From positions 67,718 through 131,717 of the forward strand of contig CAVTIN010000003.1 in NCBI GenBank assembly GCA_963734895.1: 64,000 nucleotides of DNA. Reading direction: 5' to 3'. Below, one piece after another: positions 1-36,276 of the stretch. The notes under the pieces were generated by a model. It did not search any database. It had not been told where the DNA came from and saw nothing but the letters and a program-made list of their open reading frames with translations. A program made the position numbers and the translations under genes. Every line of letters starts with the position of its first letter. Within the stretch, counting starts at the first letter, position 1. The DNA is from an uncultured Chloroflexia bacterium. Lineage in GTDB: Bacteria > Chloroflexota > Limnocylindria > Limnocylindrales > CSP1-4.

Positions 1-57
1 CGCCACATCGGATTCGAGGTCCGAGGTCGGGTGGATGCGCGCGGTCGCGTCGATCAC
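1..57 (-). CDS. partial N-terminus of a possible hexapeptide-repeat (left-handed beta-helix) transferase; the gene runs off the window
   Basis: GTG at 57..55 is followed by VIDATARIHPTSDLESDVA, which resembles LbH acyltransferase N-termini. Only 19 codons are visible. A TATACT -10-like hexamer lies on the minus strand at 157..152. Confidence 0.2.
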   Translation of the reverse strand, partial: MIDATARIHPTSDLESDVA

Positions 58-170
58 GGGTCTGGTGGGCTCCCTGCCTGGTCGCGGCTCACGCGAGCGC
101 CGCGGAACCGGGCCACCGCAGCGATCTGCCGCGCTCCCGGGACCGTCGCTGAGTATAGCCGCCGTCCCGA

Positions 171-776
171 TCAGCCCCGACGGCGCAGGGCGCGGATCAC
201 GGTGCTCACCAGGCCGAAGGCGGCACCGGCCGCAAGGGCGCCTCGCCAGTCGAGCACGGGCCGGACGTCGCCCGACACGTGCTGGGCGATCATCACCAGC
301 ACGCCCGTCGGCCGGTTGATGGTCACGCGCTGGGCGATCAGCGTTCGGACGAGACTCTGGTCGATCGTCGCGTTCCGGGCGGCGACCGTCCCGGCGATCC
401 CCTGGGTGACCCGGATCTCGCCCGCGAGCGCTGCGCCCAGGCTGCCGAGCTCGACGGCGGCGCGGTCGGCGCGGGCGGCGCCGATGCCACCCCACTGGAC
501 GAAGACCTCCTCGGCGTCGAGGCGCCCGATCCCGCCCATGCGGACATCGACGGCGCCGGCCGTTGCCTCGGCGATCCCGCCACGCTCGACCCGGATCACC
601 GTCGCCGGGGCGGTCGAGGCGGGATCGGGCTCTGGGACGGCCGGCGCGTGGACCTTGGACGGCACCGCCTCGACATCAGCGGCCTTGGCCCTGGTCGTGG
701 AGGCGACGTCGGGCGCCGGCTTCGCGGCGGCCCGGCGGCGGGGACGCTTGGGGGCGGCGGGCTTGGGCTCGGTCAT
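171..776 (-). CDS. hypothetical membrane-anchored protein with Gly-rich beta-helix-like repeats
   Basis: ORF 171..1250 is trimmed to ATG 776 (MTEPKP...). The upstream 158 codons are R/P/G-rich and overlap the divergent DUF3048 gene. It has repeated GGI(G/A)..A..V units and a C-terminal hydrophobic helix, ALAAGAAFGLVSTVI. Confidence 0.5.
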   Translation of the reverse strand: MTEPKPAAPKRPRRRAAAKPAPDVASTTRAKAADVEAVPSKVHAPAVPEPDPASTAPATVIRVERGGIAEATAGAVDVRMGGIGRLDAEEVFVQWGGIGAARADRAAVELGSLGAALAGEIRVTQGIAGTVAARNATIDQSLVRTLIAQRVTINRPTGVLVMIAQHVSGDVRPVLDWRGALAAGAAFGLVSTVIRALRRRG

Positions 777-991
777 CGGATGCCTCGGGTTGATCTGACA
801 GGCTGACTGTGTGGTCGAGCCTACCGCATGGTGGGGGCCGTACCCAGGGTCAGAGTGCCCCGTTTCCGGCTTCCCGCTATCCTGCCCGCGGGTTGCTGAC
901 GCCGGATCGGGCGGCACTTCCCGCCGACCGCGAACCGCTTCAGCTGGAGCCGCAGGATGAACATCGGCCGCCACGGTCAGCCGGTGGCGTC

Positions 992-2206
992 GTGACGCGG
1001 ACCGCCGCCGCCATGCTCGTCGCCGCCACACTCGCCGTCGGCGTCCTGGTCGGCGCCCTGGCAGGCGGATTGCTCGCGGCCCCGGGCCCGTCGCGGACAG
1101 CGCTGGCGTCACCGACCGCGTCCCCGGCCCCGACGACGAGCCCGTCGCCGACCGTGCCGGAGCCAACGCCCACCGCCACGCCGGCGCCGACACCGACCCC
1201 GGTCCCGACTCCGACCCCGTCGCCCACGCCGGTGCTGGTCCCCGATCCATTGACCGGCCTTCCGGTGACCGAGTCTGTCGCCTCGCGCCACGTCGTCGCC
1301 GTGATGGTCGACGACCAGACCGATGCTCGACCTCAATCGGGGTTCTCCAGCGCCGGCATCGTGTGGCAGGCCCCCGCGGAGGGCGGCATCCCGCGCTACA
1401 TGATGCTGTTCCAGGACGGCGATCCGGCGGCGGTTGGTCCGGTCCGCAGCTCGCGCCAGTACTTCATCGTCTGGGCATCGGAGTGGAAGGCCGTGTACGT
1501 CCACGTCGGCGGCTCGCCACAGGCGCTGGCCACGCTCCACTCGTCCCAGGGTCGCGGCGGCCTCGTGTATGACGCCGACGAGTTTCGCTACGGTGGCAAG
1601 TACCTGTGGCGCATCAAGCAGCGGAACGCGCCGCACAACGTCTACACGGACGGCGCGCATCTTCGGGCCCTGACCAAGCTCGTCGGCGCCAAGGCGGTCC
1701 CCAACCAGGCACCGCTGTGGAAGTTCGCACCGGCCCTGAACCTGGTCCATCGGCCCAATGGGGGCACGATCGTCGTCCCGTACGACGCCAACAAGATCAC
1801 ATACTCGTACGACCGGGTGACGAACACCTACCCCAGGACCGTCACCGGGGAGGGCAAGCAGTTCGACGCGGCAGCCGACGTGCGAGTGGCACCCACCAAC
1901 ATCGTCATCATGGTCGTCAAGTTCGGGCCCCTCAACGACGGGTCGCACAAGCACCGTCTCGAGGCACAGCAGATCGGCAGCGGCACGGCATGGATCGCGA
2001 CCAACGGCACCACGGTCAAGGGCACCTGGCGCAAGAAGTCGACCACAGCGCCAACCCTGTTCTACGGGCCGGACGGCAGGCAGGTGACGCTGACCGTCGG
2101 GCAGACGTTCGTGCAGGTGGTGAAGACGGGCACCGGGATCACGATCAAGGACGGTGCGGCACCGGTTCCGACAGTGCCCCACCTGGACCAGCTGCTCGAG
2201 CTCTGA
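992..2206 (+). CDS. DUF3048-family secreted or membrane-anchored protein
   Basis: It has an N-terminal hydrophobic helix and a Pro/Thr-rich linker. The core VAVMVDDQTDARPQSG..GIPRYMMLF..YVHVGGS is one I recognise as DUF3048. The start (GTG 992 or ATG 1013) is uncertain. Confidence 0.7.
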   Translation: MTRTAAAMLVAATLAVGVLVGALAGGLLAAPGPSRTALASPTASPAPTTSPSPTVPEPTPTATPAPTPTPVPTPTPSPTPVLVPDPLTGLPVTESVASRHVVAVMVDDQTDARPQSGFSSAGIVWQAPAEGGIPRYMMLFQDGDPAAVGPVRSSRQYFIVWASEWKAVYVHVGGSPQALATLHSSQGRGGLVYDADEFRYGGKYLWRIKQRNAPHNVYTDGAHLRALTKLVGAKAVPNQAPLWKFAPALNLVHRPNGGTIVVPYDANKITYSYDRVTNTYPRTVTGEGKQFDAAADVRVAPTNIVIMVVKFGPLNDGSHKHRLEAQQIGSGTAWIATNGTTVKGTWRKKSTTAPTLFYGPDGRQVTLTVGQTFVQVVKTGTGITIKDGAAPVPTVPHLDQLLEL

Positions 2207-2215
2207 CCGGGCGCC

Positions 2216-3406
2216 TCAGAGCAGGGGTGCGCGCCGGGCGACCTCCGCCCAGACCGCCCGGGTTTCACGCGCCACGTCCGCCCAGGTCCGGTCGCGTTCC
2301 GGCCGTTCGGCCGTTGCCGCCACCAGGCCGGCATGGAGATCGTCGTCCGACCAGGCGGCCCGCAGGGCCGCGGCCAGCCGGGTGGCATCGCCCGGCTCCA
2401 CCAGGATCCCGGCCCGCCCCACGATCTCCTTGAGCGAGCCGACCGCCGAAGCCACGACCGGCACGCCCGCGGCCAGCGCGTCAAGAGCGGAGAACGAGGC
2501 CGCTTCCGAGCGAACCGGCAGCACGAGGAACCGGGCCCCCGCGACGAGCGCGGCAAGGCGCGGCTCCGGCAGCCGCGGGGCATAGGCGAGCAGCTCCGAG
2601 ATGCCCTCCCGTGATGCGGCCCGGGACAGCGCCGCGCGGTCCGCCGGGGAGGCCCCGATGAGGCACACCCTGGGCGGCCAGGGAACGCCGTTCGGGGCCG
2701 GCTCGGCGGCAAGCGCCGTGAGCGCGGCCAGCAGCGTCGGCAGGTCCTGGCGCGCATCGTAGCGACCGGCGTAGACCGCGTAGCGATCGCCGAGGCCCAG
2801 GCGTTCCCGCTCGCGCGCCGCTCCCTCGATCGCGCCGATTGCGTAGGCGGGACGGGCGGCGAGCGGGACGACGCGCAGACGCGCTGCCCGGACGCGGAGG
2901 AGGAGACGAGCCTGGGCGGCGGTCTCGCGCGCCGGGACGATCACCGCCGCGGCATCGCGCAGGAGCCGGGCACGAAGGCGTTGCCCGAAGCGTGCGGCCA
3001 CGCCGCGCTGGTACGCATGCGGGAGCTCCCACGGGGCGAGGTCGAGCAGCGTCGCGACGATCGGGATTCGCGACGCGATCGGCAGCGCACCGGCGGCCGC
3101 GTGATACACGGCGCCCGTGGCCCCTGAGCGCTCAGCACGCCAGCCGGCACCCACCGACGCACCGCGGAGCATGACGGGGTCGACCGTGAGCGCACCGGAT
3201 CGCAGGAGGCGAGTGGGCGGCAGCAGTCGGTGCCCGATCACCGGCAATCCCGGCCAGCGGGCGGTTGGGTCATCGAGGTCCGAGGCGAGCAGGAACGAGA
3301 AGGATTCGCCGGGCATCGGGTCGGCCGCAAGCGCTCCCAGGAGGCCGTCGAGGTACGCGGCGGTCAGCGGGGCGCGCTCCGGGTCCTGGAGTGGACGCAC
3401 GTCCAT
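2216..3406 (-). CDS. glycosyltransferase, GT-B fold (GT4/GT1 family)
   Basis: The C-terminal segment PVRSEAASFSALDALAAGVPVVASAVGSLKEIV..GILVEPGD is typical of GT4 enzymes. The 506-aa ORF is trimmed to ATG 3406 (MDVRPLQ). Confidence 0.8.
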   Translation of the reverse strand: MDVRPLQDPERAPLTAAYLDGLLGALAADPMPGESFSFLLASDLDDPTARWPGLPVIGHRLLPPTRLLRSGALTVDPVMLRGASVGAGWRAERSGATGAVYHAAAGALPIASRIPIVATLLDLAPWELPHAYQRGVAARFGQRLRARLLRDAAAVIVPARETAAQARLLLRVRAARLRVVPLAARPAYAIGAIEGAARERERLGLGDRYAVYAGRYDARQDLPTLLAALTALAAEPAPNGVPWPPRVCLIGASPADRAALSRAASREGISELLAYAPRLPEPRLAALVAGARFLVLPVRSEAASFSALDALAAGVPVVASAVGSLKEIVGRAGILVEPGDATRLAAALRAAWSDDDLHAGLVAATAERPERDRTWADVARETRAVWAEVARRAPLL

Positions 3407-3483
3407 GACCACGCGGACCCCGGGAAGTGTCGCTGCGGGGGCTTCGGAGGCGCCCGGCCGCCACCCCGGCCGAGCGGGTCCGG

Positions 3484-4272
3484 TCACGGGGTCCGTCGTG
3501 CCGGAGCGCGCCCGCGGAGCTCGTCCCAGCGCAGCCCGACCACGACGAACAGCGCCTCCACGATGATCCGCCGGCTCATCTTGGACGCGCCTGCCCGACG
3601 ATCGCGGAACGTGATCGGCACCTCGGCGATCCGGGCCCCGAAGCGCGACGCGCGGTAGGTCATCTCGATCTGGAACACGTAGCCACCAGCCCGCACGCCG
3701 TCGAAGGGGACCTCCGCGAGCGTCGACGCCCGCCATGCCTTGAACCCCCCGGTCAGGTCGTGGGGACCGAGGCCGAGCATGATCCGTGCGAACACCGAGC
3801 CGCCGCGGGAGATGATGCGCCGGAACAGCCCCCAGTCCATCACCCCGCCGCCGCGAACGTAGCGCGAGCCGATCACGAGATCGCTTCGCCCGGCGAGGAC
3901 CGGCTCGATGAGGGCCGGCAGGGCCAAGGGATCGTGGGACCAGTCCGCGTCCATCTGCACGACAACCTGCGCCCCGCCCGCGAGGGCGTCGCGGAAGCCG
4001 TCCAGGTACGCGCGGCCAAGCCCCTGCTTTCCCGGCCGGTGCCGGACGCGGATCCGCTGATCGTCGGTGGCGAGCCGCTCGGCGAGCTCACCGGTCCCGT
4101 CCGGCGAGCTGTCGTCGATCACGAGCAGCGTCGCTCCCGGGAGCGCCTCCAGGATTGCCGCCGAGATGCCGGGGAGGTTATCCGCCTCGTCGTAGGTCGG
4201 CAGGCAGATCCAGGTACCGGCGCCCGAGGCGTCGGCGGCGCTCCGATCGAGGGGGCTCGGGTCGAGGCTCAT
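3484..4272 (-). CDS. polyprenol-phosphate mannosyl/glycosyl-transferase (GT2, Ppm1/DPM1-like)
   Basis: Motifs present: ICLPTYDEADNL, LLVIDDSSPDGT, VVVQMDADWSHDP, GSRYVRGGG and TGGFKAW. These are canonical GT2 dolichol/polyprenol-P-mannose synthase motifs. Confidence 0.85.
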   Translation of the reverse strand: MSLDPSPLDRSAADASGAGTWICLPTYDEADNLPGISAAILEALPGATLLVIDDSSPDGTGELAERLATDDQRIRVRHRPGKQGLGRAYLDGFRDALAGGAQVVVQMDADWSHDPLALPALIEPVLAGRSDLVIGSRYVRGGGVMDWGLFRRIISRGGSVFARIMLGLGPHDLTGGFKAWRASTLAEVPFDGVRAGGYVFQIEMTYRASRFGARIAEVPITFRDRRAGASKMSRRIIVEALFVVVGLRWDELRGRAPARRTP

Positions 4273-4320
4273 CGCAGGCGAGTGTAGCCGCCGGATGGGC
4301 CCGTCACTCGCGCAACAGGC

Positions 4321-7300
4321 CTACGGGAGGGCCCGCAGCGCGCTCAGCACCGCGTCGCTCACCGCGCCCGGGCCGCCCAGGATGACGATCTTGGCGGGCT
4401 TGAGCCGGGTGAGCTCGGCGGCGATCGCCGGCGGCAGGGCCTTGGGGTCGGTGAGCAGCAGCGGGGCCCCGTCCTTGCCGGCCACGGGAGCGCCGGTGAG
4501 CGCGTCGGGGAACTGGGTGCCGGTGGCGATGTACGCGACCGGCACGTTCGAGCCGAAGCTCGCGGCGCTGATCGCGGCCGAGGTGTCGTACAGGGTCTGG
4601 CCGAACAGGCGGGTGACCGTGCCCGCGTAGTGGCGCAGCGCGCTCAGCACCGCGTCGCTCACCGCGCCCGGGCCGCCCAGGATGACGATCTTGGCGGGCT
4701 TGAGCCGGGTGAGCTCGGCGGCGATCGCCGGCGGCAGGGCCTTGGGGTCGGTGAGCAGCAGCGGGGCCCCGTCCTTGCCGGCCACGGGAGCGCCGGTGAG
4801 CGCGTCGGGGAACTGGGTGCCGGTGGCGATGTACGCGACCGGCACGTTCGAGCCGAAGCTCGCGGCGCTGATCGCGGCCGAGGTGTCGTACAGGGTCTGG
4901 CCGAACAGGCGGGTGACCGTGCCCGCGTAGTGGCGCAGCGCGCTCAGCACCGCGTCGCTCACCGCGCCCGGGCCGCCCAGGATGACGATCTTGGCGGGCT
5001 TGAGCCGGGTGAGCTCGGCGGCGATCGCCGGCGGCAGGGCCTTGGGGTCGGTGAGCAGCAGCGGGGCCCCGTCCTTGCCGGCCACGGGAGCGCCGGTGAG
5101 CGCGTCGGGGAACTGGGTGCCGGTGGCGATGTACGCGACCGGCACGTTCGAGCCGAAGCTCGCGGCGCTGATCGCGGCCGAGGTGTCGTACAGGGTCTGG
5201 CCGAACAGGCGGGTGACGACGAGGTGCTGGACGGTCACCCCGAATGCGGCCACCTGGGCGGGGGACACCGGGCTGACCGACGGCGCCGTGTAGGTGACCG
5301 ATCCGGACTTCCCCACCAACTGGAGCATGTACGTTCCGTCGGCGACAGGCACCCCGGCGACCTTCGCATCCCAAGCGTAGTGGCGGGCGCCCGCGGCTCC
5401 CGCGGTCAACGTGCGCGTGTCCACGAGCGTGCCGTCGGAGCGGTACACGCGCAGCTGGAGGGTGCTCAGAGCAACGGTCGTCTGCCAGTCGAGCTGCACC
5501 GTATCGTGATCACCGTCGCCGTTGGGCGACACGAACCGGCTCCCGGCGTTCGCGACACCCAGGCTGGCGGCCCCGAGACCGTTGAAGCCGAGGCTGCGTA
5601 TCCCTGCGTCAACCGTCGTGGAGTTGGGTGCCCGATACGCGCCGATATAGCCGGAGGGTGTCGCCACGGGACCCGACGCCATCCACACGCCGACCTCCGC
5701 AAACGTCACCGTGCCCCATTCGAGGACCGGTTGCGTGACCTGCCACCAGACGTAGCCGTCGGCCGTGACCGGACCGCCGGTCACGGCGACGATCGTGCCG
5801 GTGTCGACGGTGCCCAGCTTCGCCGCCGACGTGTCTGGGCCGGTTCGGTACGACAGGCCATCGGTCCGCACCTGGCCGAAGCCACCGACCGCCAGCGACG
5901 GGCTGGGGCTCCAGGTCGAGGTGATGTCCCACGCGGACACGTTGCCCTTCGTGTCCCGTGCGCGGGTGCGGAACGCATAGCCATGGCCGGACTGGCCAAG
6001 CCAGGTGTCGGACTCCGCCGTGGTGCCGGAGAGCCAGGCCGTCCACGGACCGCCGTCTTTCGAGACCTGGACGTCGTACGAGGCAACCCCGGACGTGTCC
6101 GAGCCCGCCCAGGAGACCGTGAACCCCTCGTCCCGCTGGGTCGTGCCGAGCATCCGGACGCCGGTGACGGGGCCGGTCACGTCGGTCAGGAACGCGTCCG
6201 AGATGGCCCGGTACAGCTCCGGGTGGCCGCCGTCGTAGCCGAGCGCCCAGATTCCGGCGCCGCGCAGGCCGTACGTGTTCACGAGCTCGTAGCGAAGCCT
6301 CATCGACTCTGCGTCGTCGTAGTAGACCTGCCGCCAGGTCTGTACGCAGCCGTAGGTGGTCGTGCAGTTCGTCCGCTGGTAGGCGAACCACGGCGTCTGC
6401 TCGCGGCTGTCCCAGCGGCGCCCGTACTGGGCCACCAGGTCGACCACGTTCCCGTAGTTCACGGCGGCGCTGTACCCGTACTTGGCACCACTCTGGCTGG
6501 CCGCGTTCACCGCATCGGTCGCCGTCGACCACGCCCGCCCGTACCACGGGAGGCCCAGGATCACCTTCGACGGGCTGACCCGGGCCGTGTAGGAGCGAAT
6601 GGTGTCCGTCAGGTCGTAGGCGGGACCCGACAGCGGATCGATCGAGCCAACGTAGGATGACGATGAGGTCCGATAGTCGTAGCCCATCACGAAGATGGCG
6701 TCGGCCGCGCCCGCGGCGACGGAGGCCTCGATCGGGTAGTTGCCGATCCAGCCCGTGGTGTCGTACGTCAGCTGGTACCCGGGGGCCACCTTGTCGAGCT
6801 CCGTGCGCATCGTCCGCAGCAGCGCGACGAAGTCGTCCTCGTGGCCGCTGACGACCGGCTCGAAGTCGAGGTTGATACCGTCCGCTCCCCGGTCCCGGAC
6901 GGCCGCAACGGCCTGCTGCGCGAGGTTGAGCCGGGCAGCGCTGCTGCCGAGCAGCGCTGCCTGGACGTTTGCCTGGGTCGTCGACCATGCGAACACCGAG
7001 AGGGTGAGCACGACCCGCGTCCCGTGGCTGTGGGCGGCGTTGATGACCGAGGTGAGGCTCGAGCTCGTCCAGCCGCCCCACCCGGTGGTCGTCGAGCCGT
7101 CGCTGTTCTTCTTGAGCAGGTTGCCCGCACTGTTCGCACCCACGGAGAAGTACGCGATCGTCGACAGATCGTCGTAGTTGAGCGTCGACGCCGATCCGGA
7201 CACCTCCCAGTACGGCAGGAAGCCGAACACCTGCCGCCGCAGGCCGGAGGCGGCGGTCGTTTCGGACGTGGCCGTGACGGGGGCGGTCCAGGTGGCGCCG

Positions 7301-7812
7301 GCCGCATCGCCGGACACGCCGCCGCCGTTGGAGTCGACGGGTGCGGGGTCGGTTGACGGCGCGGCCACGTCCAGGGTGACCGGGACGCCGCCGGACGCCG
7401 AGGTGGACCAGCTGCTGCCCTGCGGGCTGCGCGCCATGTCGCGGCCGCTCGCTCGACCGGCGGGAAGCGCTGTTGGCGCCCGCCCATCCACCGGCCAGCG
7501 ATCCGTGGACCGCGGCGTGAACGGCGTGTCGACACGCGCGCCGGGCGTGAACGCGATCTTGTCAGAGGCGTGGGCCATCGCCTCCTCATACGGCACCGAC
7601 GGTTGTGGCCGGCCGACCTCCGTGATCGCAGCGCGATCCGCCGCCGATTCGGTGGGCGCCGGCTCAGCGTCGGGCGCGGACGTACGGGCGGCCGGCGGGG
7701 CGGTGGGCGTCGCGGCGATCGCCGGAACGGGCACGATGCCGACCACGAGCATTGCGACGAGGAGGACCGTCGCGACGGGGCGGCCGCGGAGCGCGAAGCG
7801 GGGTCGGGTCAC
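4321..7812 (-). CDS. secreted multidomain GH18 glycoside hydrolase with FN3-like, SH3b-like and FlgD-Ig-like modules and 3 C-terminal CWB2 cell-wall-binding repeats
   Basis: Signal peptide MTRPRFALRGRPVATVLLVAMLVVGIVPVPAIAA. GH18 core VFGFLPYWE..GADGINLDFEP. FlgD-Ig-like FVSPNGDGDHDT. Three identical 100-aa units, RLFGQTLYDTSAAISAASFG..AYIATGTQFPDALTGAPVAGKDGAPLLLT, match the CWB2 pattern. Confidence 0.85.
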   Translation of the reverse strand: MTRPRFALRGRPVATVLLVAMLVVGIVPVPAIAATPTAPPAARTSAPDAEPAPTESAADRAAITEVGRPQPSVPYEEAMAHASDKIAFTPGARVDTPFTPRSTDRWPVDGRAPTALPAGRASGRDMARSPQGSSWSTSASGGVPVTLDVAAPSTDPAPVDSNGGGVSGDAAGATWTAPVTATSETTAASGLRRQVFGFLPYWEVSGSASTLNYDDLSTIAYFSVGANSAGNLLKKNSDGSTTTGWGGWTSSSLTSVINAAHSHGTRVVLTLSVFAWSTTQANVQAALLGSSAARLNLAQQAVAAVRDRGADGINLDFEPVVSGHEDDFVALLRTMRTELDKVAPGYQLTYDTTGWIGNYPIEASVAAGAADAIFVMGYDYRTSSSSYVGSIDPLSGPAYDLTDTIRSYTARVSPSKVILGLPWYGRAWSTATDAVNAASQSGAKYGYSAAVNYGNVVDLVAQYGRRWDSREQTPWFAYQRTNCTTTYGCVQTWRQVYYDDAESMRLRYELVNTYGLRGAGIWALGYDGGHPELYRAISDAFLTDVTGPVTGVRMLGTTQRDEGFTVSWAGSDTSGVASYDVQVSKDGGPWTAWLSGTTAESDTWLGQSGHGYAFRTRARDTKGNVSAWDITSTWSPSPSLAVGGFGQVRTDGLSYRTGPDTSAAKLGTVDTGTIVAVTGGPVTADGYVWWQVTQPVLEWGTVTFAEVGVWMASGPVATPSGYIGAYRAPNSTTVDAGIRSLGFNGLGAASLGVANAGSRFVSPNGDGDHDTVQLDWQTTVALSTLQLRVYRSDGTLVDTRTLTAGAAGARHYAWDAKVAGVPVADGTYMLQLVGKSGSVTYTAPSVSPVSPAQVAAFGVTVQHLVVTRLFGQTLYDTSAAISAASFGSNVPVAYIATGTQFPDALTGAPVAGKDGAPLLLTDPKALPPAIAAELTRLKPAKIVILGGPGAVSDAVLSALRHYAGTVTRLFGQTLYDTSAAISAASFGSNVPVAYIATGTQFPDALTGAPVAGKDGAPLLLTDPKALPPAIAAELTRLKPAKIVILGGPGAVSDAVLSALRHYAGTVTRLFGQTLYDTSAAISAASFGSNVPVAYIATGTQFPDALTGAPVAGKDGAPLLLTDPKALPPAIAAELTRLKPAKIVILGGPGAVSDAVLSALRALP
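4336..5222. repeat. 2.96 tandem copies of a 300-bp unit (one CWB2 module each), nucleotide-identical to 8060..8946
   Basis: Lines 4381-4680, 4681-4980 and 4981-5220 read identically. The boundaries were found by comparing flanks with the second locus. Confidence 0.95.
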
Positions 7813-8047
7813 GGCCGTCCTCTTGGCAAACCTTGCACGGACGCGTCGCCTGACCGCGACGTGCCTGGCGGGACGCCCACCGAAAGAGTCTCGGTGCTCG
7901 AGCCAGTATCGTCCACCCGCCGTGTGGGCGGGTACAACCTGACCATCGTCCCTATGTCAACCAGTACGGTGTGGTTGGGGACACTCCGGTTCGGTTGGTC
8001 CGACGCGTCGATCCGCCCGTCGTGATGGCGGGGACTACCGGGCCGGC

Positions 8048-10375
8048 TCAGTAGGCAGCCAGCGCGCTCAGCACCGCGTCGCTCACCGCGCCCGGGCCGC
8101 CCAGGATGACGATCTTGGCGGGCTTGAGCCGGGTGAGCTCGGCGGCGATCGCCGGCGGCAGGGCCTTGGGGTCGGTGAGCAGCAGCGGGGCCCCGTCCTT
8201 GCCGGCCACGGGAGCGCCGGTGAGCGCGTCGGGGAACTGGGTGCCGGTGGCGATGTACGCGACCGGCACGTTCGAGCCGAAGCTCGCGGCGCTGATCGCG
8301 GCCGAGGTGTCGTACAGGGTCTGGCCGAACAGGCGGGTGACCGTGCCCGCGTAGTGGCGCAGCGCGCTCAGCACCGCGTCGCTCACCGCGCCCGGGCCGC
8401 CCAGGATGACGATCTTGGCGGGCTTGAGCCGGGTGAGCTCGGCGGCGATCGCCGGCGGCAGGGCCTTGGGGTCGGTGAGCAGCAGCGGGGCCCCGTCCTT
8501 GCCGGCCACGGGAGCGCCGGTGAGCGCGTCGGGGAACTGGGTGCCGGTGGCGATGTACGCGACCGGCACGTTCGAGCCGAAGCTCGCGGCGCTGATCGCG
8601 GCCGAGGTGTCGTACAGGGTCTGGCCGAACAGGCGGGTGACCGTGCCCGCGTAGTGGCGCAGCGCGCTCAGCACCGCGTCGCTCACCGCGCCCGGGCCGC
8701 CCAGGATGACGATCTTGGCGGGCTTGAGCCGGGTGAGCTCGGCGGCGATCGCCGGCGGCAGGGCCTTGGGGTCGGTGAGCAGCAGCGGGGCCCCGTCCTT
8801 GCCGGCCACGGGAGCGCCGGTGAGCGCGTCGGGGAACTGGGTGCCGGTGGCGATGTACGCGACCGGCACGTTCGAGCCGAAGCTCGCGGCGCTGATCGCG
8901 GCCGAGGTGTCGTACAGGGTCTGGCCGAACAGGCGGGTGACGACGATCGGATCGTGGTTGAGCACGAATGTCGCGGTCGAGGCCAGCGTCGGATTGGCCC
9001 ACGCGTCGTCCGCTGTGAGGCGCCACCGGTACGTGCCGTCGGGGGCAAGCGAGCCACCGACGATCCCGTCCCAGGTGATTGCAGCCGTATCACCGGTTCC
9101 GCTGCGGGTCGCGAGCGATGAGCCCTTGCCGTCCTCGATTGACAGCGTCCATGACGCCGTCTCCGAGATTTCCACGGTCAGCTGGTACGTGTCCCGATCG
9201 CCGTCGCCGTTCGGCGTGAACAGGGCGTTGCCGTCGCTGACCGACCAAACTCTCGGAGACTGGCTGTCGCGCGGCGTGGCGGTATCGCCGATCATCCAGC
9301 CGCTGCTCGATCCATCGAGGGTCTCGACATCGAGCAGCTCTGCGCCGTCCGTGGTCGAGGTGATGTCCGACACGCGCAGCTTGTCGTTCATCGGCAGCGT
9401 CGTGATTGGCGTCGGCGAGGACGGCTCGGCTGCAGTGTCGCCGGCGCTTCCGGCGGCGGCGTGCGCAGCAGCGGCGTCTGCCTCGGTTGCATACACAGGA
9501 GCATCGTCCACGGCAACGCTCGCGGCGCCGGGCGCCTGGAAGTCGGTCGGGTCGGTGTCGGTCGATGCGAAGCCCGCGCCCGTGACGTCCGCGGTCGTCA
9601 GCGTCATCGATCCGGTCATGGCGCGGTAGTAGCGGCTGGTCGAGTTCTCGGGATCAAGCTGGTAGGTCTTGCCGGGAGTGCGCACGGACGGGTATGACGC
9701 CACGTGGCCGTTTGCGTACGGCATCCCGCGCCACAGCTGATCGATGGTCTGCCGAGTCGTGAACAGCCGGGTGATGTAGCCGCTGTGACTGTGCCCGTCG
9801 GCGATGACCGCGCCGGCGCCCGCCTTGAGGAACGCCGACGCGTAGTTGTCGACTCGCTGCTGCGCGACGCTCAGCGTCGGCTCGGCGTTGCCGGGCTCGG
9901 AATTGCCGGAGGCGTAGCACAGGTGGAACAGCAGGACCACGGCGTTCGGCGCAGGCGTCAGCGTCCTGATGGACGGCTCGCCGTAGTACTTGTTCACATA
10001 GTCCGAGCGGTCGCCGTCGACATTGAGCCCGAAGCCGTCCTTCGTCGTGAACAGGGGGTCGTAGGTGTACGGGCTCGGCCAGCCATTGCCATGTCCGAGA
10101 TAGACGACGATCGATGCGCCATTCACGGCCGCCTTGACATTCGACCACGTCGCGTTCGGGCTGTAGACCCTGACCACGTTGCTGGTGTACGCAATCGCCT
10201 CGGCGTAGATCTGGTCCGCGTACGACCGGTAGGTCGAGGTCGCGCTGTGCGTGGCGCCGACGATGATCGCGACCTTGGGGCCCGTGGCCGCGGAGGCGCG
10301 AGATACGGTCGCCGGGGCAAACGTGCCGACACCCACGAGGAACACAGCGATGAGAGCGAGGGCCAGCTTGCGCAA
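8048..10375 (-). CDS. secreted protein with a putative clan-CD (caspase/gingipain-like) cysteine-peptidase-like N-domain, an FlgD-Ig-like module and 3 CWB2 repeats
   Basis: TTG start with signal peptide MRKLALALIAVFLVGVGTFAPATVSRASA. A beta-strand+HG (IVVYLGHGNG) and a beta-strand+C (VVLLFHLCYASG) form a dyad-like pattern. FTPNGDGDRDT module. The same three CWB2 units as the upstream gene. Confidence 0.7.
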   Translation of the reverse strand: MRKLALALIAVFLVGVGTFAPATVSRASAATGPKVAIIVGATHSATSTYRSYADQIYAEAIAYTSNVVRVYSPNATWSNVKAAVNGASIVVYLGHGNGWPSPYTYDPLFTTKDGFGLNVDGDRSDYVNKYYGEPSIRTLTPAPNAVVLLFHLCYASGNSEPGNAEPTLSVAQQRVDNYASAFLKAGAGAVIADGHSHSGYITRLFTTRQTIDQLWRGMPYANGHVASYPSVRTPGKTYQLDPENSTSRYYRAMTGSMTLTTADVTGAGFASTDTDPTDFQAPGAASVAVDDAPVYATEADAAAAHAAAGSAGDTAAEPSSPTPITTLPMNDKLRVSDITSTTDGAELLDVETLDGSSSGWMIGDTATPRDSQSPRVWSVSDGNALFTPNGDGDRDTYQLTVEISETASWTLSIEDGKGSSLATRSGTGDTAAITWDGIVGGSLAPDGTYRWRLTADDAWANPTLASTATFVLNHDPIVVTRLFGQTLYDTSAAISAASFGSNVPVAYIATGTQFPDALTGAPVAGKDGAPLLLTDPKALPPAIAAELTRLKPAKIVILGGPGAVSDAVLSALRHYAGTVTRLFGQTLYDTSAAISAASFGSNVPVAYIATGTQFPDALTGAPVAGKDGAPLLLTDPKALPPAIAAELTRLKPAKIVILGGPGAVSDAVLSALRHYAGTVTRLFGQTLYDTSAAISAASFGSNVPVAYIATGTQFPDALTGAPVAGKDGAPLLLTDPKALPPAIAAELTRLKPAKIVILGGPGAVSDAVLSALAAY
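8060..8946. repeat. second copy of the 887-bp triple-CWB2 cassette (3 x 300 bp)
   Basis: It is base-for-base identical to 4336..5222, in the same orientation, about 3.7 kb away. Confidence 0.95.
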
Positions 10376-10597
10376 GGGATGAGGCTCCGGTCATTTGCGG
10401 GCGCCCGGCAATAGACCGGGCAGGGATCAGTGCCCTGCAAGCGTCGTCGCGCGCGGGTTCGGAGCCAATCGCGGGATGGTCATGGCGCGCGTGGCCCTTT
10501 CGACCCGGTGCTGGTTCGGAGCGCAGCACACAGGTGCGGACCGGGGCAGTGTGTCGGGCGTGTCGCGGGCGCGGCGCCCGGTGATCGAGGCGGCCGG

Positions 10598-11532
10598 TCA
10601 GTGGCCTCGAAGCGTCCGCCGCAGCGCGGGCACGGCATCCGCGAATGCCTCGCGCCAGCCGCGCATCGGCTCCCCCGACGGCAGCGGCGTGGGCTCGAGC
10701 ACAGCCCAGCGCGGGGGCGTCGACGCCCGGGGCCAATCGGCGCCCGGGATGTCGAGCACGTCGACATCGATCGCGGCGGCGCGGAGAACCTCGCGCGCCC
10801 AGCCCGCGCGCGAGGCGCGACCCTCGTTGACCAGGTGGTGGACCGCGGTCCGTTCGATCCGGCCGGTCCATAGGCGTCTTCGGCGAGGAGCTCGCACAGC
10901 GCCTCGGCGACGTCGGGGGCATAGGTGGGGCTGCCGATCTCGTCGCCGACCACGCGCAAGGACTCCCCGGCACCGCGGGCCCGGATCGCCGCTGCCGCGA
11001 TCTTGGCGGGGAAGTCGTTGCCCGGCGGTCCGTGGAGCCACGATGTCCTGACCACGGCGAGGCGGGGCCCGGCCCCGGCACCACTCCCGATCGCTTCGCG
11101 AGCCAGGCGCTCCGCCTCGGCCTTGCTTGCGCCGTACGCGTTGATCGGGTCGAACACGTCGTCTGGTGCGTACCCGGCACCGTCCGTGCGCCGCCCATCG
11201 AAGACCTCGTTGGTCGAGATCAGGATCAGGTCGACCCCGCTACCAACGCAGGCATCGGCGAGCGCCCGCGTTGCCGTTGCGTTGCGTTGCAGCGCGAGCT
11301 GCGGATCCCGGGCGCAGCCGTCGACGTCGGTCCAGGCTGCGGCATGGATCACCACCTCCGGCCGATCGCGATCGATGAGCGCGGTCGCGGACGCCTCGGT
11401 GAGCGTGTCCAGGTCGAGCTCCGGCCGGCTCCACGCGATCGGGCCCATGGGGCCCGTGAACGGGGCCGCACCGAGGGCCTCGACGAGGGCGCTGCCGAGC
11501 CGGCCGCGTGCACCGGTGACGGCCACGCGCAC
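10598..11532 (-). pseudogene. rfbD: dTDP-4-dehydrorhamnose reductase (RmlD/RfbD), interrupted by a single-nt frameshift near 10864-10869
   Basis: The N-terminal part (MRVAVTGARGRLGS..SPTYAPDVAEALCELLAEDAY) is in the frame of 11532. The C-terminal part (VHHLVNEGRASRAGWAREVL..GWREAF) is in the frame ending at 10598. 935 nt plus 1 gives 312 codons. Confidence 0.85.
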
Positions 11533-11535
11533 CGG

Positions 11536-12635
<1,100 letters not shown>

Positions 12636-12639
<4 letters not shown>

Positions 12640-13400
12640 GGTTCGATCGGGTGGGCCGGCGGCGGTAGGAGCTGACCGGCCTCGTCATCCGCGCTCGCAA
12701 GCTCGGCCGCCTGGAGCAGCGACGCGACGGTGCCGGCGTCCGTCCACTGGCCGTCATAGACCGCGGTGAACAGGCCCCCTGACGGGATGTATCGGTTGAG
12801 GACGTCGGTGATCTCGAACTCACCACGGCCGGAGGGCGCCAGCGTCTCGATGACATCGAAGGCGTCGGGACGGAGGAAGTACACCCCGATCGGGATCAGG
12901 TCGCTCTTGGGATGAGCGGGCTTCTCCTCGAAGCCCAGCACGCGTCCCTCCGCGTCCAGCTCCGCGACACCGAAGCGCTCCGGGTCCGGGACCCGATAGA
13001 GCAGGGTCCCGGCGCCCCATGCACCGTCGTCGAACGCCAGGGCAGTGGCCGCCAGCGAGGGACCCCGGAGGATGTTGTCGCCCAGGACCACGCAGAACGA
13101 GTCGGCGCCGATGAAGTCCCGCGCGAGCCCGATCGCGTGGGCGATGCCGAGCGCGCCGCGCTGATACCGGTACGTCAGGTCGAGGCCGAGATGCCGGCCA
13201 TCGCCGAGGAGCTCCACGATGTCCCCGACGCTCTTGCCGCCGACGATCACCATCACCTCGCGGATCCCCATCCCGGCCAGCGTTTCGAGCGGGTAGTAGA
13301 TCATCGGCCGGTCGTAGATCGGCAGCAGATGCTTGTTGGTGACAATGGTGAGCGGGAACAGCCGGCTCGCGGTGCCACCGGCGAGGACGAGGCCCTTCAT
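12636..13400 (-). CDS. sugar-phosphate nucleotidyltransferase (short RmlA-like glucose-1-phosphate thymidylyltransferase)
   Basis: MKGLVLAGGTASRLFPLT..NKHLLPIYDRPMIYYPL is the nucleotidyltransferase signature. The ORF is trimmed from 13583 to ATG 13400. Confidence 0.8.
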
Positions 13401-13512
13401 CGGCGACAGCCTAGCAGGGCCGCGGCCGGCGATGGTCACCGGGGTCGCGCAACCGGGCGCGGCGATTTCGCCACCCCGGCTGGCAGGGTCACGCCCCGGG
13501 TCGCGCCGTGGA

Positions 13513-14475
13513 TCAGGGTCGGGAGGAGCTCGTCGGTTCGGGCGAAGGCGTGTAGCAGGGCACCTCGCCATCGGGCACGACACCGTCGGTCCCGCACGGG
13601 ACGGGCTGCTGGTCGACCGGCGGCAGCCCGCCCTGGTAGTCCGTGATGATCAGTGCCATCTCGAACGAATCGAGGTTCGCCGCGGGCGCCAGGAACGCCG
13701 TCTGGACCACGTCGTTCACGTCGCGCTGCACGTCGACGACGCTGCCCAGCACCAGGCCCTTAGGGTACGGGGACCGGAGGCCTCCCGCCAGCTCGATCCC
13801 GGCGGTGAACACCTCCTCCTCGGGCGCGATCTGCACCGAGGAATCGATGTTGCGCATGACGAGGACGCCGCCGGCCTGGCCACCGACCTCGCCCGCCGCC
13901 CCGGAGCCCAGCAGCATGCCGACCACGGTCGAAGACGGGTCGCTGATCAACGTCACCTTGGCGAAGTTCGGGCCGACGTCCGTGACGCGACCAGCCAGCG
14001 CGCCGCCCTGGACGACGACCGCATCGCCCTCGGCGATTCCGTCATCGGTGCCCTTGTCGAGGATCACCAGGCGTCGCGTGTCCAGCGACTCCCGGCCGAT
14101 GACGCGCGACGCGACGGTGGCGTGGTCGAACCCGCTCTGGAGCTGCAGCAGAGCCGTCAGCTGATCGTTCTCGCGCTTGACCACCTCCAGCCGCGCGTTC
14201 TCGTTGGTCAGGCGCTCGTTCTCGTCGCGTAGCGCCGAGTTGTCGGTCCGCAGCTGGTCGATCTCGCCGATCGCGCGTGCGACACCCGCGACGCCGTCGG
14301 CAGCCCCGGCGATCGCGCCCTGGAGCGGACGCAGCGCGAACGACATCCCACTCTGGAAGTCCTGGACGTACGGGTTCGCGGAGAAGGCCATCATCAGCAG
14401 CGTCACGGCGAGCAGGATCGTGAACGTGATGCCGCGACGGCGGGCCTGGCGACTGGCGGCGATGCGTGTGGTCAT
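13513..14475 (-). CDS. mreC: rod shape-determining protein MreC
   Basis: It has an N-terminal TM helix, a coiled coil (LRTDNSALRDENERLTNENARLE) and beta-barrel repeats (VVVQGGALAGRVTDVGPNFAKVTLI). It lies directly downstream of mreB. Trimmed to ATG 14475. Confidence 0.85.
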   Translation of the reverse strand: MTTRIAASRQARRRGITFTILLAVTLLMMAFSANPYVQDFQSGMSFALRPLQGAIAGAADGVAGVARAIGEIDQLRTDNSALRDENERLTNENARLEVVKRENDQLTALLQLQSGFDHATVASRVIGRESLDTRRLVILDKGTDDGIAEGDAVVVQGGALAGRVTDVGPNFAKVTLISDPSSTVVGMLLGSGAAGEVGGQAGGVLVMRNIDSSVQIAPEEEVFTAGIELAGGLRSPYPKGLVLGSVVDVQRDVNDVVQTAFLAPAANLDSFEMALIITDYQGGLPPVDQQPVPCGTDGVVPDGEVPCYTPSPEPTSSSRP

Positions 14476-14527
14476 GGCGCGAGCTCCGGGGGCCGGCCCC
14501 GATCCGCCGGGGCGGGCTGTGCGGTGA

Positions 14528-15586
14528 TCAGCGCGGCGGGCGGCTGTAGGTCTCGGTGACGAGGACGCGCTCCATGGACGGGCTGGCCAGCTCCTGGAGC
14601 ACGACGCCCGTGCCACGCGCGACGCAGGTCAGCGGGTCGTCGGCGACGTGCACCGGCATCTGGGTCGCCTCGGCGACGCGCCGGTCCAGGCCGACGAGCA
14701 GGGCACCACCGCCGGCAAGCACGACGCCCTGGTCCATGATGTCCGCCACGAGCTCCGGCGGCGTCTCCTCGATGGTGTCCTTGATCGTGTCCACGATCTG
14801 GGCGACCGAGACCTCGATCGCCTCGCGGATCTGGTCGGCGCCGACCTCGACCGAGCGCGGCAGCCCGGTCAGCAGGTCGCGCCCGCGAAGGGTGACGCGC
14901 TGCAAATCCCACTCGCCCGGGTAGGCGGAGCCGATCGCGACCTTGATGTCCTCGGCGGTCCGCTCGCCCAGGAACAGGTTGTACTCGCGTCGGGCGAACG
15001 ACACGATGTCCTGGTCCATCTCGTCGCCGCCGATCCGGATCGAGCGGCTGACGACGATCCCGCCCAGCGAGATGACCGCGACCTCGGTCGTGCCGCCGCC
15101 GATGTCGACGATCAGCGACCCGGACGGCTCGCTCACCGGCAGGCCCGCGCCGATCGCCGCCGCCATCGGCTCCTCGATGAGCCGAGCCCATCGGGCACCC
15201 GCGTTCATCGCGGCGTCGCGGACGGCGCGCTTCTCGACCTCGGTGACACCCGACGGGATCCCCAGCAGCATCCGCGGCCGCGGGATCAGGCCCACCCGGT
15301 CGTGCACCTTGTTCACGAAGTACTTGATCATCTGCTCGGTGACGTCGAAGTCCGAGATGACGCCATCACGCAGGGGACGGACCGCGATGATCGAAGCGGG
15401 GGTGCGGCCGACCATGCGCTTGGCCTCGGCGCCGATCGCGAGCACGCGCTTGGTCCTGGCGTCGATGGCCACTACGGACGGCTCGGAGATCACGATCCCG
15501 CGATCGCGCACGTGCACGAGCGTGTTGGCCGTGCCGAGGTCGATCCCGATATCGCGGGAGAACAGGCCGAGGATACGGTCGAGCAT
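14528..15586 (-). CDS. mreB: rod shape-determining protein MreB
   Basis: DIGIDLGTANTLV, VVAID, IVDIGGGTTEVAV and GGGALL are actin-fold MreB motifs along the full length. Confidence 0.95.
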   Translation of the reverse strand: MLDRILGLFSRDIGIDLGTANTLVHVRDRGIVISEPSVVAIDARTKRVLAIGAEAKRMVGRTPASIIAVRPLRDGVISDFDVTEQMIKYFVNKVHDRVGLIPRPRMLLGIPSGVTEVEKRAVRDAAMNAGARWARLIEEPMAAAIGAGLPVSEPSGSLIVDIGGGTTEVAVISLGGIVVSRSIRIGGDEMDQDIVSFARREYNLFLGERTAEDIKVAIGSAYPGEWDLQRVTLRGRDLLTGLPRSVEVGADQIREAIEVSVAQIVDTIKDTIEETPPELVADIMDQGVVLAGGGALLVGLDRRVAEATQMPVHVADDPLTCVARGTGVVLQELASPSMERVLVTETYSRPPR

Positions 15587-33439: not shown

Positions 33440-33598
33440 TGAATCCGAGGATAGCCCACCCGGAGACGGTCGATGTTGCCGGAATGGGCCAAACGCACGA
33501 TCAGCGGGTGTACGATGCCGACTCGCCTCGATCGGGCGCGAGGGCGCCGCCCAGCGACCCGGGAGCCCGCCCCGATCCGGCAGCACGCGGAGGCACAC

Positions 33599-34621
33599 GT
33601 GTCGGACTCCATCGGCGCCGGCGACGGCCCGCTCACCATCCTGTCTGCGGGCGCGGCCGCACTCGCGCGCGCCGACGACCTGGATACCGCGCTATCGGCG
33701 ATCGTCGAAGCGGGCGCGACCGCGGTCGGCGCGGCGACTGCCGCCGTGTTCACGCCCGGCGCGGACGGCAGCGGTCTGGAGCTGCTGTTGACGCTGGGCA
33801 TGCCGGAGCACACCGTCGATGGCTTCGCGGCGGACGTGTCGGGCAATCCCGAGCACCCGATCCACCGCGCCGCGGTCGACCGCACCGGATCGCTCGGGCG
33901 AACCAGCGAGATGCCGGACGGGGCCCCGATGACGGTCGTGGACCTGCCGCTCGTCGTCGCCAGCGGCGGCGTCGAGGAAGGGCTGGGCGTGCTGAGCTTC
34001 GGCTGGCCGGGAGTCCACGAGGTCGGCGTCGCCGAGGAGACCACCCTGGTCGCCATCGCCGATCTGGCGGCAGCGGCGATCGGGACGTTCCGCACGGCCT
34101 CGCTCGCTGCAGAGCGGGCCGAGTGGTTCGAGCGCGTCGCACACACGGATCCGCTGACCGGTCTCTCGAACGCGCGCACGCTGACGCGCATCCTGGAGCT
34201 CGAGGTGGCGCGCGCCCAGCGCCAGCGCAGCGAGGTGTCCGTCGCGGTGTTCGACGTCGACGGGTTCACCGAGCTCAACACGTCGGTCGGCTCGCGAGCC
34301 GGCGACCAGGTCCTGCGCCAGGTCGCCGCCGTGCTCGCCGAGAATGTCCGCCTGGTCGACACGATCGCCCGCACGGGCGGCGACGAGTTCGTGCTCGTGG
34401 CGCCGGGATCGGCCGGTGTGACCGTCGCCCACCGCGTGCTGGATGGGATCGCGACGCTGGAGGCCGTGGAGAACCTCCCGGTCACCGTCTCCGCCGGAGT
34501 GGCCAGGTTCCCGCAGGATGGTGGAGACGCCGAAGCGCTGATCGGCGCGGCGCGTGCAGCCCTCGCGAGCGGCGCCGGAGCGGCTTCGATCTCGGAGGCG
34601 GCGGGCACCGCCGGCGCGTAG
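33599..34621 (+). CDS. GAF-domain diguanylate cyclase (GGDEF)
   Basis: DPLTGLSNAR, the VAVFDVDGFTELN motif, and an intact ARTGGDEFVLVA active site. The start is taken as GTG 33599, which is preceded by GGAGG. ATG 33473 is also possible. Confidence 0.85.
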   Translation: MSDSIGAGDGPLTILSAGAAALARADDLDTALSAIVEAGATAVGAATAAVFTPGADGSGLELLLTLGMPEHTVDGFAADVSGNPEHPIHRAAVDRTGSLGRTSEMPDGAPMTVVDLPLVVASGGVEEGLGVLSFGWPGVHEVGVAEETTLVAIADLAAAAIGTFRTASLAAERAEWFERVAHTDPLTGLSNARTLTRILELEVARAQRQRSEVSVAVFDVDGFTELNTSVGSRAGDQVLRQVAAVLAENVRLVDTIARTGGDEFVLVAPGSAGVTVAHRVLDGIATLEAVENLPVTVSAGVARFPQDGGDAEALIGAARAALASGAGAASISEAAGTAGA

Positions 34622-35375: not shown

Positions 35376-35569
35376 CCGGGCCGTTCCGGGCCGGGCATCG
35401 TCGCTGGGCGCGGACCGCGCCGACGCCGTGCCGGGCCTCGGCCGCGCGTTGACTGCCAGACGACGAAACCGGGCCGTTCCGGGCCGGGCATCGTCGCTGG
35501 GCGCGGACCGCGCCGACGCCGTGCCGGGCCTCGGCCGCCCGTTGACTGCCAGACCACGAAACCGGGCCG
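35376..35569. repeat. 93-bp tandem repeat, 2.1 copies, 2 mismatches between full copies
   Basis: Units at 35376-35468 and 35469-35561, plus a 9-nt start of a third. Each unit carries the palindrome GGCGCGGACCGCGCC and a TTGACT hexamer. The repeat lies 23 bp upstream of the tmk start. Confidence 0.9.
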
Positions 35570-35757: not shown

Positions 35758-36276
35758 TCAGGCCGGCAGGCCTACGGGCGTGGACGTCAGCGCGTCCGCT
35801 CGCTGCCAGGCCGAGAGGTGGGCGGCGATGGCCGCGAGGACACCGGGGACGCCCGCGGCAACGGGAGGTGTGAGCTCGAGGCCGAGCTCGATCGCAAGGG
35901 GCTCGACGCCGATCACCCGGACGCGCCTGGGCCACGACTCCATCACGTGGAGCGCGCCTAGCAGCTCTCCCGCTCCGAGGTCATGAACGCTCATCACCTG
36001 CTCGTGGCGAATGAGCGATGCCCCCTCGAGGTCGAGCAGCGTCCCGGGCTCGCGGTTCGCGTGGATCGCATCGACGACCACGAGCCCGTCCAGTCCCGTG
36101 AGGTAGGGCAGCAGGCCGAGCCCGACGGTTCCGCCGTCGATCAGCTCGACGGCGGACGGGTCCGACAGGACGGACAGGAGCTCGGGCTCGGTCTGGAGAC
36201 GCTCGATGACGATGGCGCCCAGCGCCTCGTCCGCCTCGAGCCGGTTGCCGAGCCCCAGCACGGCATAGCGGCTCAT
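35758..36276 (-). CDS. [NiFe]-hydrogenase maturation endopeptidase (HyaD/HupD family)
   Basis: VLGLGNRLEADEALG, DGGTVGL and VVVDA motifs. Its ATG overlaps the hypA-like stop (ATGA). Confidence 0.85.
   Translation of the reverse strand: MSRYAVLGLGNRLEADEALGAIVIERLQTEPELLSVLSDPSAVELIDGGTVGLGLLPYLTGLDGLVVVDAIHANREPGTLLDLEGASLIRHEQVMSVHDLGAGELLGALHVMESWPRRVRVIGVEPLAIELGLELTPPVAAGVPGVLAAIAAHLSAWQRADALTSTPVGLPA

Follow-up and report, generated by a model that had tools for sequence, protein, structure and literature searches.

The 64,000-nucleotide stretch of DNA analysed here (the window, W) comes from an uncultured Chloroflexia bacterium of soil (assembly GCA_963734895.1, contig CAVTIN010000003.1, positions 67,718 to 131,717) and contains two neighboring minus-strand genes, A and B, which encode unrelated secreted enzymes. 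The 3' ends of both genes are formed by the same array of three CWB2 units, a module known from the cell wall proteins of Clostridioides difficile. We conclude that the six identical units are very probably the current state of recurrent gene conversion, that is, of concerted evolution of the anchoring module, with each array staying at three units. Only the latest round of homogenisation is recent. The evidence comes from the arrangement and sequence of the units in the window and from the corresponding loci of related genomes, in which units cluster by genome and the two-gene architecture is old and syntenic, supporting the ongoing conversion that the first-pass annotation of this DNA had offered as one of its explanations.

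Six identical units and their counterparts in related genomes

The two genes and their arrays are as follows.

4321–7812, minus strand: gene A, open reading frame (ORF) with translation; secreted protein of 1,163 amino acids
4334–5222, minus strand: CWB2 array A, with units 4918–5217, 4618–4917, and 4334–4617; 4336–5222 equals array B
8048–10375, minus strand: gene B, ORF with translation; secreted protein of 775 amino acids
8060–8946, minus strand: CWB2 array B, with units 8642–8941, 8342–8641, and 8060–8341; identical to 4336–5222

Direct string comparison of 4336–5222 with 8060–8946 gave 887 nt with no mismatch, at an offset of 3,724 nt and on the same strand, confirming the base-for-base identical direct repeats about 3.7 kb apart that had been noted earlier. 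The identity ends abruptly on both sides, with 20-nt windows beyond it at chance level, and a perfect match of 887 nt cannot be due to chance. Tandem Repeats Finder and a repeat search found 2.9 copies of a 300-nt period in each array, with matches of 100%; the period-300 identity spans 4334–5217 and 8060–8941. The first-pass annotation had counted six perfect copies of a 300-bp unit. This holds for the CWB2 domains, all six of which are identical to each other in DNA, but not for the full period: four units are complete, and the two terminal ones share only 282–284 nt with the others, because their last 5–6 codons, which end in RALP and AAY before the stop codons, differ from the linker RHYAGT found between units. 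No further copy of the cassette was found in the 64-kb window by tblastn or blastn.

For comparison, 80 loci with the gene B peptidase were taken from one-genome-per-species contigs. Most of these lack CWB2, and the CWB2 carriers were analysed together with three further loci of long-read type (L082–L084). Below, relative loci are numbered with L and homologous proteins with P. All homologs came from Chloroflexota metagenome-assembled genomes named Ca. Limnocylindrales or Ca. Limnocylindria. Within a genome the units were 97–100% identical (W, L002, L003, and L004), and between genomes 61–75%. The units thus group by genome rather than by position or by gene, as is characteristic of concerted evolution. 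Identities for the individual loci are listed here.

W: within gene, 100%; between genes, 100%
L002: gene B units 1 and 2, 100%, all six units 97–100%; between genes, 99.66%
L003 (gene B only): within gene, 99–99.5%
L004: 97.8–99.7% over all six units, within and between genes
L030: units 1 and 2 differ from unit 3 by 7–10%, both genes alike; between genes, 99.9% over 952 nt including the stop codon
L025: within gene, 99–99.7%; between genes, 74–77%
L083: within gene, 95–99.6%; between genes, 71–74%
L084: within gene, 99.6–100%; between genes, 75–78%
L082 (contig ends before array A): within gene, 99.6–99.8%
L065 (short-read): within gene, 70–72%

In L030, unit 3 diverges only from about position 207 on, and does so in the same way in both genes. 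The six units of L004 contain all four gametes at sites 128 and 149, failing the four-gamete test, and this mosaic indicates exchange that was probably made in a shifted register. Judged from these sequences, homogenisation within a gene and homogenisation between the genes are separable, each having occurred independently in several lineages.

Both genes, each with a three-unit array and in the same synteny, were present in L002, L004, L025, L030, L083, and L084; L065 and L082 carry the two genes as well, on contigs that stop short of a complete second array. Orthologs have reached a synonymous divergence (dS) of 0.43–1.0 in their unique parts, with only 39–64% identity at four-fold degenerate sites. 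Three-unit arrays on both genes in species separated by a unique-part dS of 0.4–1.0 imply that the duplication predates the species splits, which refutes the earlier suggestion that a very recent duplication gave rise to the arrangement. Every complete long-read array (17 of 17) contained three units.

A protein survey of 76 CWB2-bearing homologs gave a bimodal distribution of the maximum inter-repeat identity, with 45 proteins at 70–80% and 16 at 98% or above, and a mostly actinobacterial CWB2 set had inter-repeat identities of 50–70%. Protein searches with the cassette only (three units, or one unit) returned foreign cassettes at most 61% identical over most of the query, mostly actinobacterial; these searches missed P0001 and P0051, both 100% carriers, and are uninformative on further carriers in the genome. 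An exact 51-nt cassette probe had no match in the JGI metagenomes.

At the amino acid level, the peptidase part is 83% identical between W and L002 and the CWB2 unit 58%, and between L002 and L025 the respective values are 53% and 76%, showing that cassette similarity is decoupled from that of the catalytic domain. The ratio of nonsynonymous to synonymous divergence (dN/dS, NG86 method) was an indicative 0.38–0.74 for the cassette at a dS of 0.38–0.84, two to three times that of the flanks (0.15–0.30 for the catalytic domains and the adjacent GT2 glycosyltransferase gene, at similar dS). Conservation is stronger in the adjacent glycosyltransferases than in the cassette, which gives no support to simple co-variation with those genes. 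The GC content at third codon positions (GC3) was higher in the arrays than in the unique parts in five of six genomes (0.99 compared with 0.86–0.90 in this window), which would fit GC-biased conversion.

We propose that two processes act on the locus. In the first, the three tandem units would be homogenised within a gene, either through intramolecular conversion or through unequal exchange after which the number returns to three. In the second, non-reciprocal conversion would take place between the two arrays, which lie 3.7 kb apart in direct orientation, with tracts bounded by the limits of homology, which lie upstream at the Ig-like domain and downstream at the stop codon or slightly beyond it. 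Selection would keep the copy number at exactly three, the number of units in the CWB2 pseudo-trimer. In this genome both processes would have reached completion recently, leaving all six units with one sequence. Conversion of the RecA type as the molecular mechanism, and the selective reason for three copies, are what we infer.

Direct repeats of this kind could also delete the GH18 gene by homologous recombination, leaving gene B with a hybrid array in front of the GT2 gene. In L003, a 1.3-Mb long-read contig, the gene B array is followed after about 190 nt by the GT2 gene (L003 11462–12600); the GH18 gene is absent, the flanks are syntenic, and all relatives, closer as well as more distant, carry the GH18 gene. 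By its gene order, L003 would fit the deletion product expected from cassette recombination. Of the predisposition to deletion or inversion that had been proposed for this locus, deletion is therefore supported by a relative lacking exactly the GH18 gene. Inversion of the intervening gene was rejected, the repeats being direct.

Competing explanations and the reliability of the assembly

Recurrent conversion was weighed against three other explanations. The first is a single very recent event, in which the cassette was triplicated and copied to the second gene once, with no process continuing afterwards. The perfect identity of one genome cannot separate one event from a recurrent process, and to this extent the window by itself would accommodate it. 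We nevertheless regard a single event as improbable: the orthologous three-unit arrays are found on both genes not only at the divergences given above but also in more distant species, every long-read relative has near-identical units of its own, which means that homogenisation occurred independently many times, and the state differs between lineages, being within-gene only, between-gene only, or both.

The second explanation is an assembly or polishing artefact, whereby true copies that differ in sequence or number were homogenised or mis-counted. Six perfectly identical copies are what homogenisation would yield, and the window is probably of the same kind as its relatives with Microflora Danica (MFD) names and contig_N labels (L002–L004, L025, and L030), which derive from a metagenome pipeline using Nanopore reads only, Flye for assembly, and a single round of polishing by Medaka (PMC12313526). 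Indel frameshifts in several sister loci also point to imperfect consensus quality. Such frameshifts in or near the CWB2 arrays of long-read assemblies were seen in L025 (11660–12350, gene B), in P0008, and in L083 (10469–13031); they may be Nanopore indel errors or genuine pseudogenes, and they split gene calls and hide CWB2 domains from annotation.

Against an artefact stands a second assembly, L001 (sample ERZ25039500), which is 99.77% identical to window positions 1–11085 and represents a strain with 27 differences. Five of these lie in the unique parts of genes A and B and none in either cassette, and gene order and unit copy number are the same as in the window. The MFD-named sister loci retain 1–18 differences between copies, arguing against systematic homogenisation. 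The arrays are 0.9 kb long, so that kilobase-scale long reads should span them together with unique flanks, and three is the biologically expected number of units. Moreover, the short-read assemblies of relatives break at the array or show too few units, and do not produce perfect triplets. Five short-read contigs (L023, L029, L037, L046, and L076) end 121–164 nt into the first CWB2 unit; three of the five bear k141 labels, and the distance to the break is about one k-mer length, as expected of de Bruijn assembly at a near-perfect repeat. The sole short-read array assembled right through is that of L065, the units of which are the 70–72% alike noted above. Taken together, these observations make the assembler or polisher artefact raised in the first-pass annotation very unlikely. 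The short-read scaffold with too few units is L069 (3306–5745), where a peptidase gene with one CWB2 unit is followed directly by the GT2 gene; either the assembly collapsed identical repeats or the locus is genuinely reduced.

The third explanation, that only purifying or convergent selection on the protein keeps the copies alike, with no recombination, finds some footing in the requirement for all three CWB2 motifs in C. difficile anchoring, which would constrain each unit (PMC4973711), but as sole cause it is refuted by identity at every synonymous site (0 of 887 nt differ, with orthologs near saturation at four-fold sites), and function does not demand identity, C. difficile motifs averaging 27% and actinobacterial isolates 50–70%.

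Several points weigh against recurrent conversion as read here, or limit its reach. The failure of the four-gamete test in L004 rests on two sites, at which recurrent mutation could have produced the same pattern. The absence of cassette differences between W and L001 is not significant alone, as about two would be expected from the divergence of the flanks; the naming and sample accession of L001 also resemble those of the project loci, so that a pipeline may be shared, and a pipeline artefact is excluded only indirectly. The loss of the GH18 gene in L003 only fits cassette deletion, the intergenic DNA being too diverged to show the junction. The dN/dS values derive from only 90 codons, by NG86, in a genome with a GC3 of 90–99%, and are indicative only. 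Lastly, binding of a wall polymer is inferred by analogy with C. difficile (PMC4973711).

The anchor module and the two enzymes

CW_binding_2 (PF04122) matched three stretches in each protein, with 190 and 178 bits against a cut-off of 24.9. Over its full length the cassette matches the triple CWB2 modules of Cwp6 (5J72) and Cwp8 (5J6Q), with residues 2–295 covered in the phmmer match to 5J72. An AlphaFold2 model of the gene B product had a mean pLDDT of 86 (88–98 in the CWB2 module); in a Foldseek search it retrieved 5J72 at an E-value of 6e-27, and the predicted structure aligned with the high-molecular-weight (HMW) subunit of C. difficile SlpA (7ACY_B) at a TM score of 0.71 and a root-mean-square deviation of 2.6 A over 340 columns. 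The P-[ILV]-[ILV]-[ILV] anchoring core, defined for CWB2 in PMC4973711, is present in each unit as GAPLLLTD. Among 34 homologs, the P and the second L of this motif do not vary in any of the three units; the first L shows no variation in units 1 and 2 and is conserved to 90% or more in unit 3. The anionic wall polymer PSII is the ligand of three CWB2 motifs in C. difficile, all of which are required (PMC4973711). By analogy, the arrays would form a non-covalent wall anchor, a triple CWB2 module, on two unrelated secreted enzymes.

That the catalytic parts of the two genes are unrelated, as had been noted, agrees with their Pfam assignments, GH18 in gene A and Peptidase_C25 in gene B. The relevant parts outside the arrays are the following.

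6232–7227, minus strand: GH18 domain of gene A (residues 196–527; PF00704 profile positions 3–317 of 317)
7813–8047, minus strand: region between genes A and B; putative gene A promoter or 5' leader, with blocks conserved in four genomes
9755–10237, minus strand: Peptidase_C25-like region of gene B (residues 47–207; Pfam)

The gene A product comprises a signal peptide, a GH18 domain (E 1e-27), a weak SH3-like region, a FlgD-type Ig domain (FlgD_ig, E 5e-8), and the three CWB2 units (CW_binding_2, E 7.5e-57 in three stretches); the GC3 of the gene is 0.92. P0051 is the exact product of gene A except at residue 1, which is M in P0051 and V as translated from the GTG start. The active-site motif is DGINLDFE compared with the family DxxDxDxE, keeping D-x-E and replacing the middle Asp with Asn. 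The closest solved structures to the GH18 domain were 4WIW, Bacillus subtilis YdhD (3CZ8), and YaaH (4S3K), and structures of the YdhD and YaaH type are those of sporulation- and germination-associated GH18 proteins. Gene A thus probably encodes a GH18 glycosidase. In the region upstream of gene A, an alignment of W, L002 (12340–12610), L004 (12335–12635), and L030 (12300–12570) revealed the conserved blocks CCACACCGTACYG, TGGKCRGGTTG, and GYGGYCAGGCG, followed by the ribosome-binding site and the GTG start. These blocks may be a promoter or leader element; an Rfam scan of the window, this region included, matched no RNA family.

The gene B product comprises a signal peptide, a C25-like cysteine peptidase domain (Peptidase_C25, E 1e-5; 25.4 bits with a cut-off of 23), an Ig-like domain (CHU_C, E 8e-5), and the three CWB2 units (CW_binding_2, E 3.5e-53); the GC3 of the gene is 0.91. 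P0001 was 100% identical to the gene B product by BLASTP, with 2 amino acid differences. The putative catalytic dyad consists of His95 (GHGNGW, codon 10091–10093) and Cys153 (HLCYASG, codon 9917–9919), both of which are invariant in 10 and in 34 homologs. A sequence search of the PDB with the peptidase domain gave no match, and in the fold search only weak matches to PorU and MALT1 were obtained for this domain (TM 0.2–0.3), the Ig-like domains dominating the results. Gene B is therefore described as a putative C25-like, or clan CD, cysteine peptidase, for which the fold matches are weakly suggestive.

Most of the C25-like peptidase homologs (most of the loci L005–L081, and proteins P0052–P0120) have no CWB2. 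Their C-termini match CHU_C, FlgD_ig, and PF19077, and JGI labels these homologs 'FlgD'. The catalytic domain is thus variously combined with C-terminal modules across the class.

Genomic setting and relation to known systems

Genes A and B are embedded in what is predicted, from the annotated neighbors, to be a cell-wall glycopolymer and rhamnose locus of a Ca. Limnocylindria/Limnocylindrales bacterium. The neighboring genes, assigned by Pfam, are listed below.

809–2206, plus strand: DUF3048 protein, downstream
2216–3487, minus strand: GT4/GT1 glycosyltransferase, downstream
3484–4272, minus strand: GT2 glycosyltransferase, downstream
10480–11532, minus strand: RmlD-like gene (truncated match), upstream
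11536–12639, minus strand: RmlB-like dehydratase, upstream
12636–13583, minus strand: RmlA-like nucleotidyltransferase, upstream
13513–14616, minus strand: MreC, upstream
14528–15586, minus strand: MreB, upstream

The upstream block (Rml, MreC, and MreB) is syntenic in L082–L084, and in L001 and L084 the locus goes on with genes for a hexapeptide transferase, a DegT aminotransferase, and a Gfo/Idh/MocA protein. Across species (window positions 1–25000, L001, and L082–L084), the order of the block is UPF0182, RadC, MreB, MreC, the Rml genes, peptidase-CWB2, GH18-CWB2, GT2, (GT4), DUF3048, hexapeptide transferase, DegT, and Gfo/Idh/MocA, with some genes missing from some loci.

The RmlD-like ORF matches only profile positions 1–201 of 287 of Pfam RmlD. 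It also holds 19 of the 27 differences between W and L001 in 11 kb, as 16 substitutions and 3 indel bases (especially at 10803–10966 and 10571). A frameshifted gene, Nanopore indel error, or a small recombination tract may account for this anomaly. A motif containing TACACT lies about 10–15 nt upstream of the GT2 start (window about 4285–4300, minus strand) and is conserved in four genomes (W, L002, L003, and L004), including the GH18-less L003, and probably represents the -10 element of a promoter for GT2. Elsewhere in the window, a 93-nt tandem repeat (2.1 copies, 98% matches, with internal sub-periods of 45–48 nt) occupies 35376–35569, between ORFs at 33473–34621 (plus strand) and 35758–36276 (minus strand).

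The closest parallel in protein architecture is the Cwp family of C. difficile, in which three tandem CWB2 units are likewise joined to different functional domains, among them an amidase (Cwp6) and a cysteine protease (Cwp84), compared with GH18 and a C25-like peptidase here. The module shows the same full-length sequence match, predicted fold, and P-x-L-L core. The cwp genes adjoin the AP locus for polymer synthesis (PMC4973711), and genes A and B likewise lie beside a putative wall-polysaccharide biosynthesis locus. The phylum differs, being Chloroflexota, and whereas the functional CWB2 motifs of C. difficile average only 27% identity (PMC4973711), the units here are 100% identical in DNA both within and between genes.

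In evolutionary behavior, the locus resembles the concerted evolution of bacterial tufA/tufB and rRNA operons, with paralogs within a genome more alike than orthologs between genomes. As in those classic cases, conversion is recurrent over long times and the identity reaches synonymous sites. A survey identified 26 recurrently converting prokaryotic genes, with conversion documented for whole genes such as tuf (PMC6053082). Unlike these, the converted unit here is a domain of 100 codons, and conversion would occur both inside a gene, among tandem units, and between a pair of genes that are unrelated elsewhere; amino acid change in the converted module is also faster, not slower, than in its surroundings. 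Periscope proteins (Rib, SasG, and SHIRT) are surface proteins with long, near-identical tandem domain repeats (PMC8201768). They share with the present genes highly identical DNA repeats that encode folded domains of secreted or surface proteins, a presumed origin in intragenic recombination, and visibility mainly in long reads. The number of their repeats differs greatly among strains, and the repeats make up a stalk, in contrast to the constant three of the long-read arrays here, which would build a compact binding module.

A further comparison is with S-layer gene families. The sapA homologs of Campylobacter fetus and slpA/slpB of Lactobacillus acidophilus combine a near-identical anchoring part, which is a substrate for recombination, with differing functional parts, and the shared segment is used to switch expression in a programmed way, through inversion or the exchange of cassettes. 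The two genes here, by contrast, are complete and co-oriented, nothing indicates switching, and only deletion is expected.

The evolutionary behavior of the locus is thus ordinary in kind, and the locus adds a clean example of concerted evolution without being new in any fundamental way. Among the 15 top-ranked full-text matches, no paper joined CWB2 with concerted evolution, and of the five papers mentioning Limnocylindria together with the cell wall, none addresses CWB2 concerted evolution by its title or abstract. What the locus offers is clear concerted evolution at the level of a domain, in a module that needs exactly three repeats, indicating that tandem domains of high identity can persist at a stable copy number, unlike those of stalk-type surface proteins. 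There are practical consequences as well. At anchors of this kind, short-read assemblies of abundant soil Chloroflexota are interrupted or collapsed, so that wall-protein repertoires are under-counted, and phylogenies and orthology assignments will mislead if they include the CWB2 part.

One further reading, which we offer tentatively and consider rather unlikely, is that conversion acts as a synchroniser: each accepted change in the anchor would be copied to all subunits of the pseudo-trimer and to every wall-anchored enzyme, allowing the anchors to track changes in the wall polymer that the adjacent locus makes, driven perhaps by phages. If the faster amino acid change does reflect tracking of a variable wall polymer, the locus would aid the study of envelope diversity in this uncultured class. 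Were the synchroniser reading true, the identity of the units would be an adaptive trait of the Limnocylindria envelope throughout the lineage, as opposed to a neutral consequence of having repeats.

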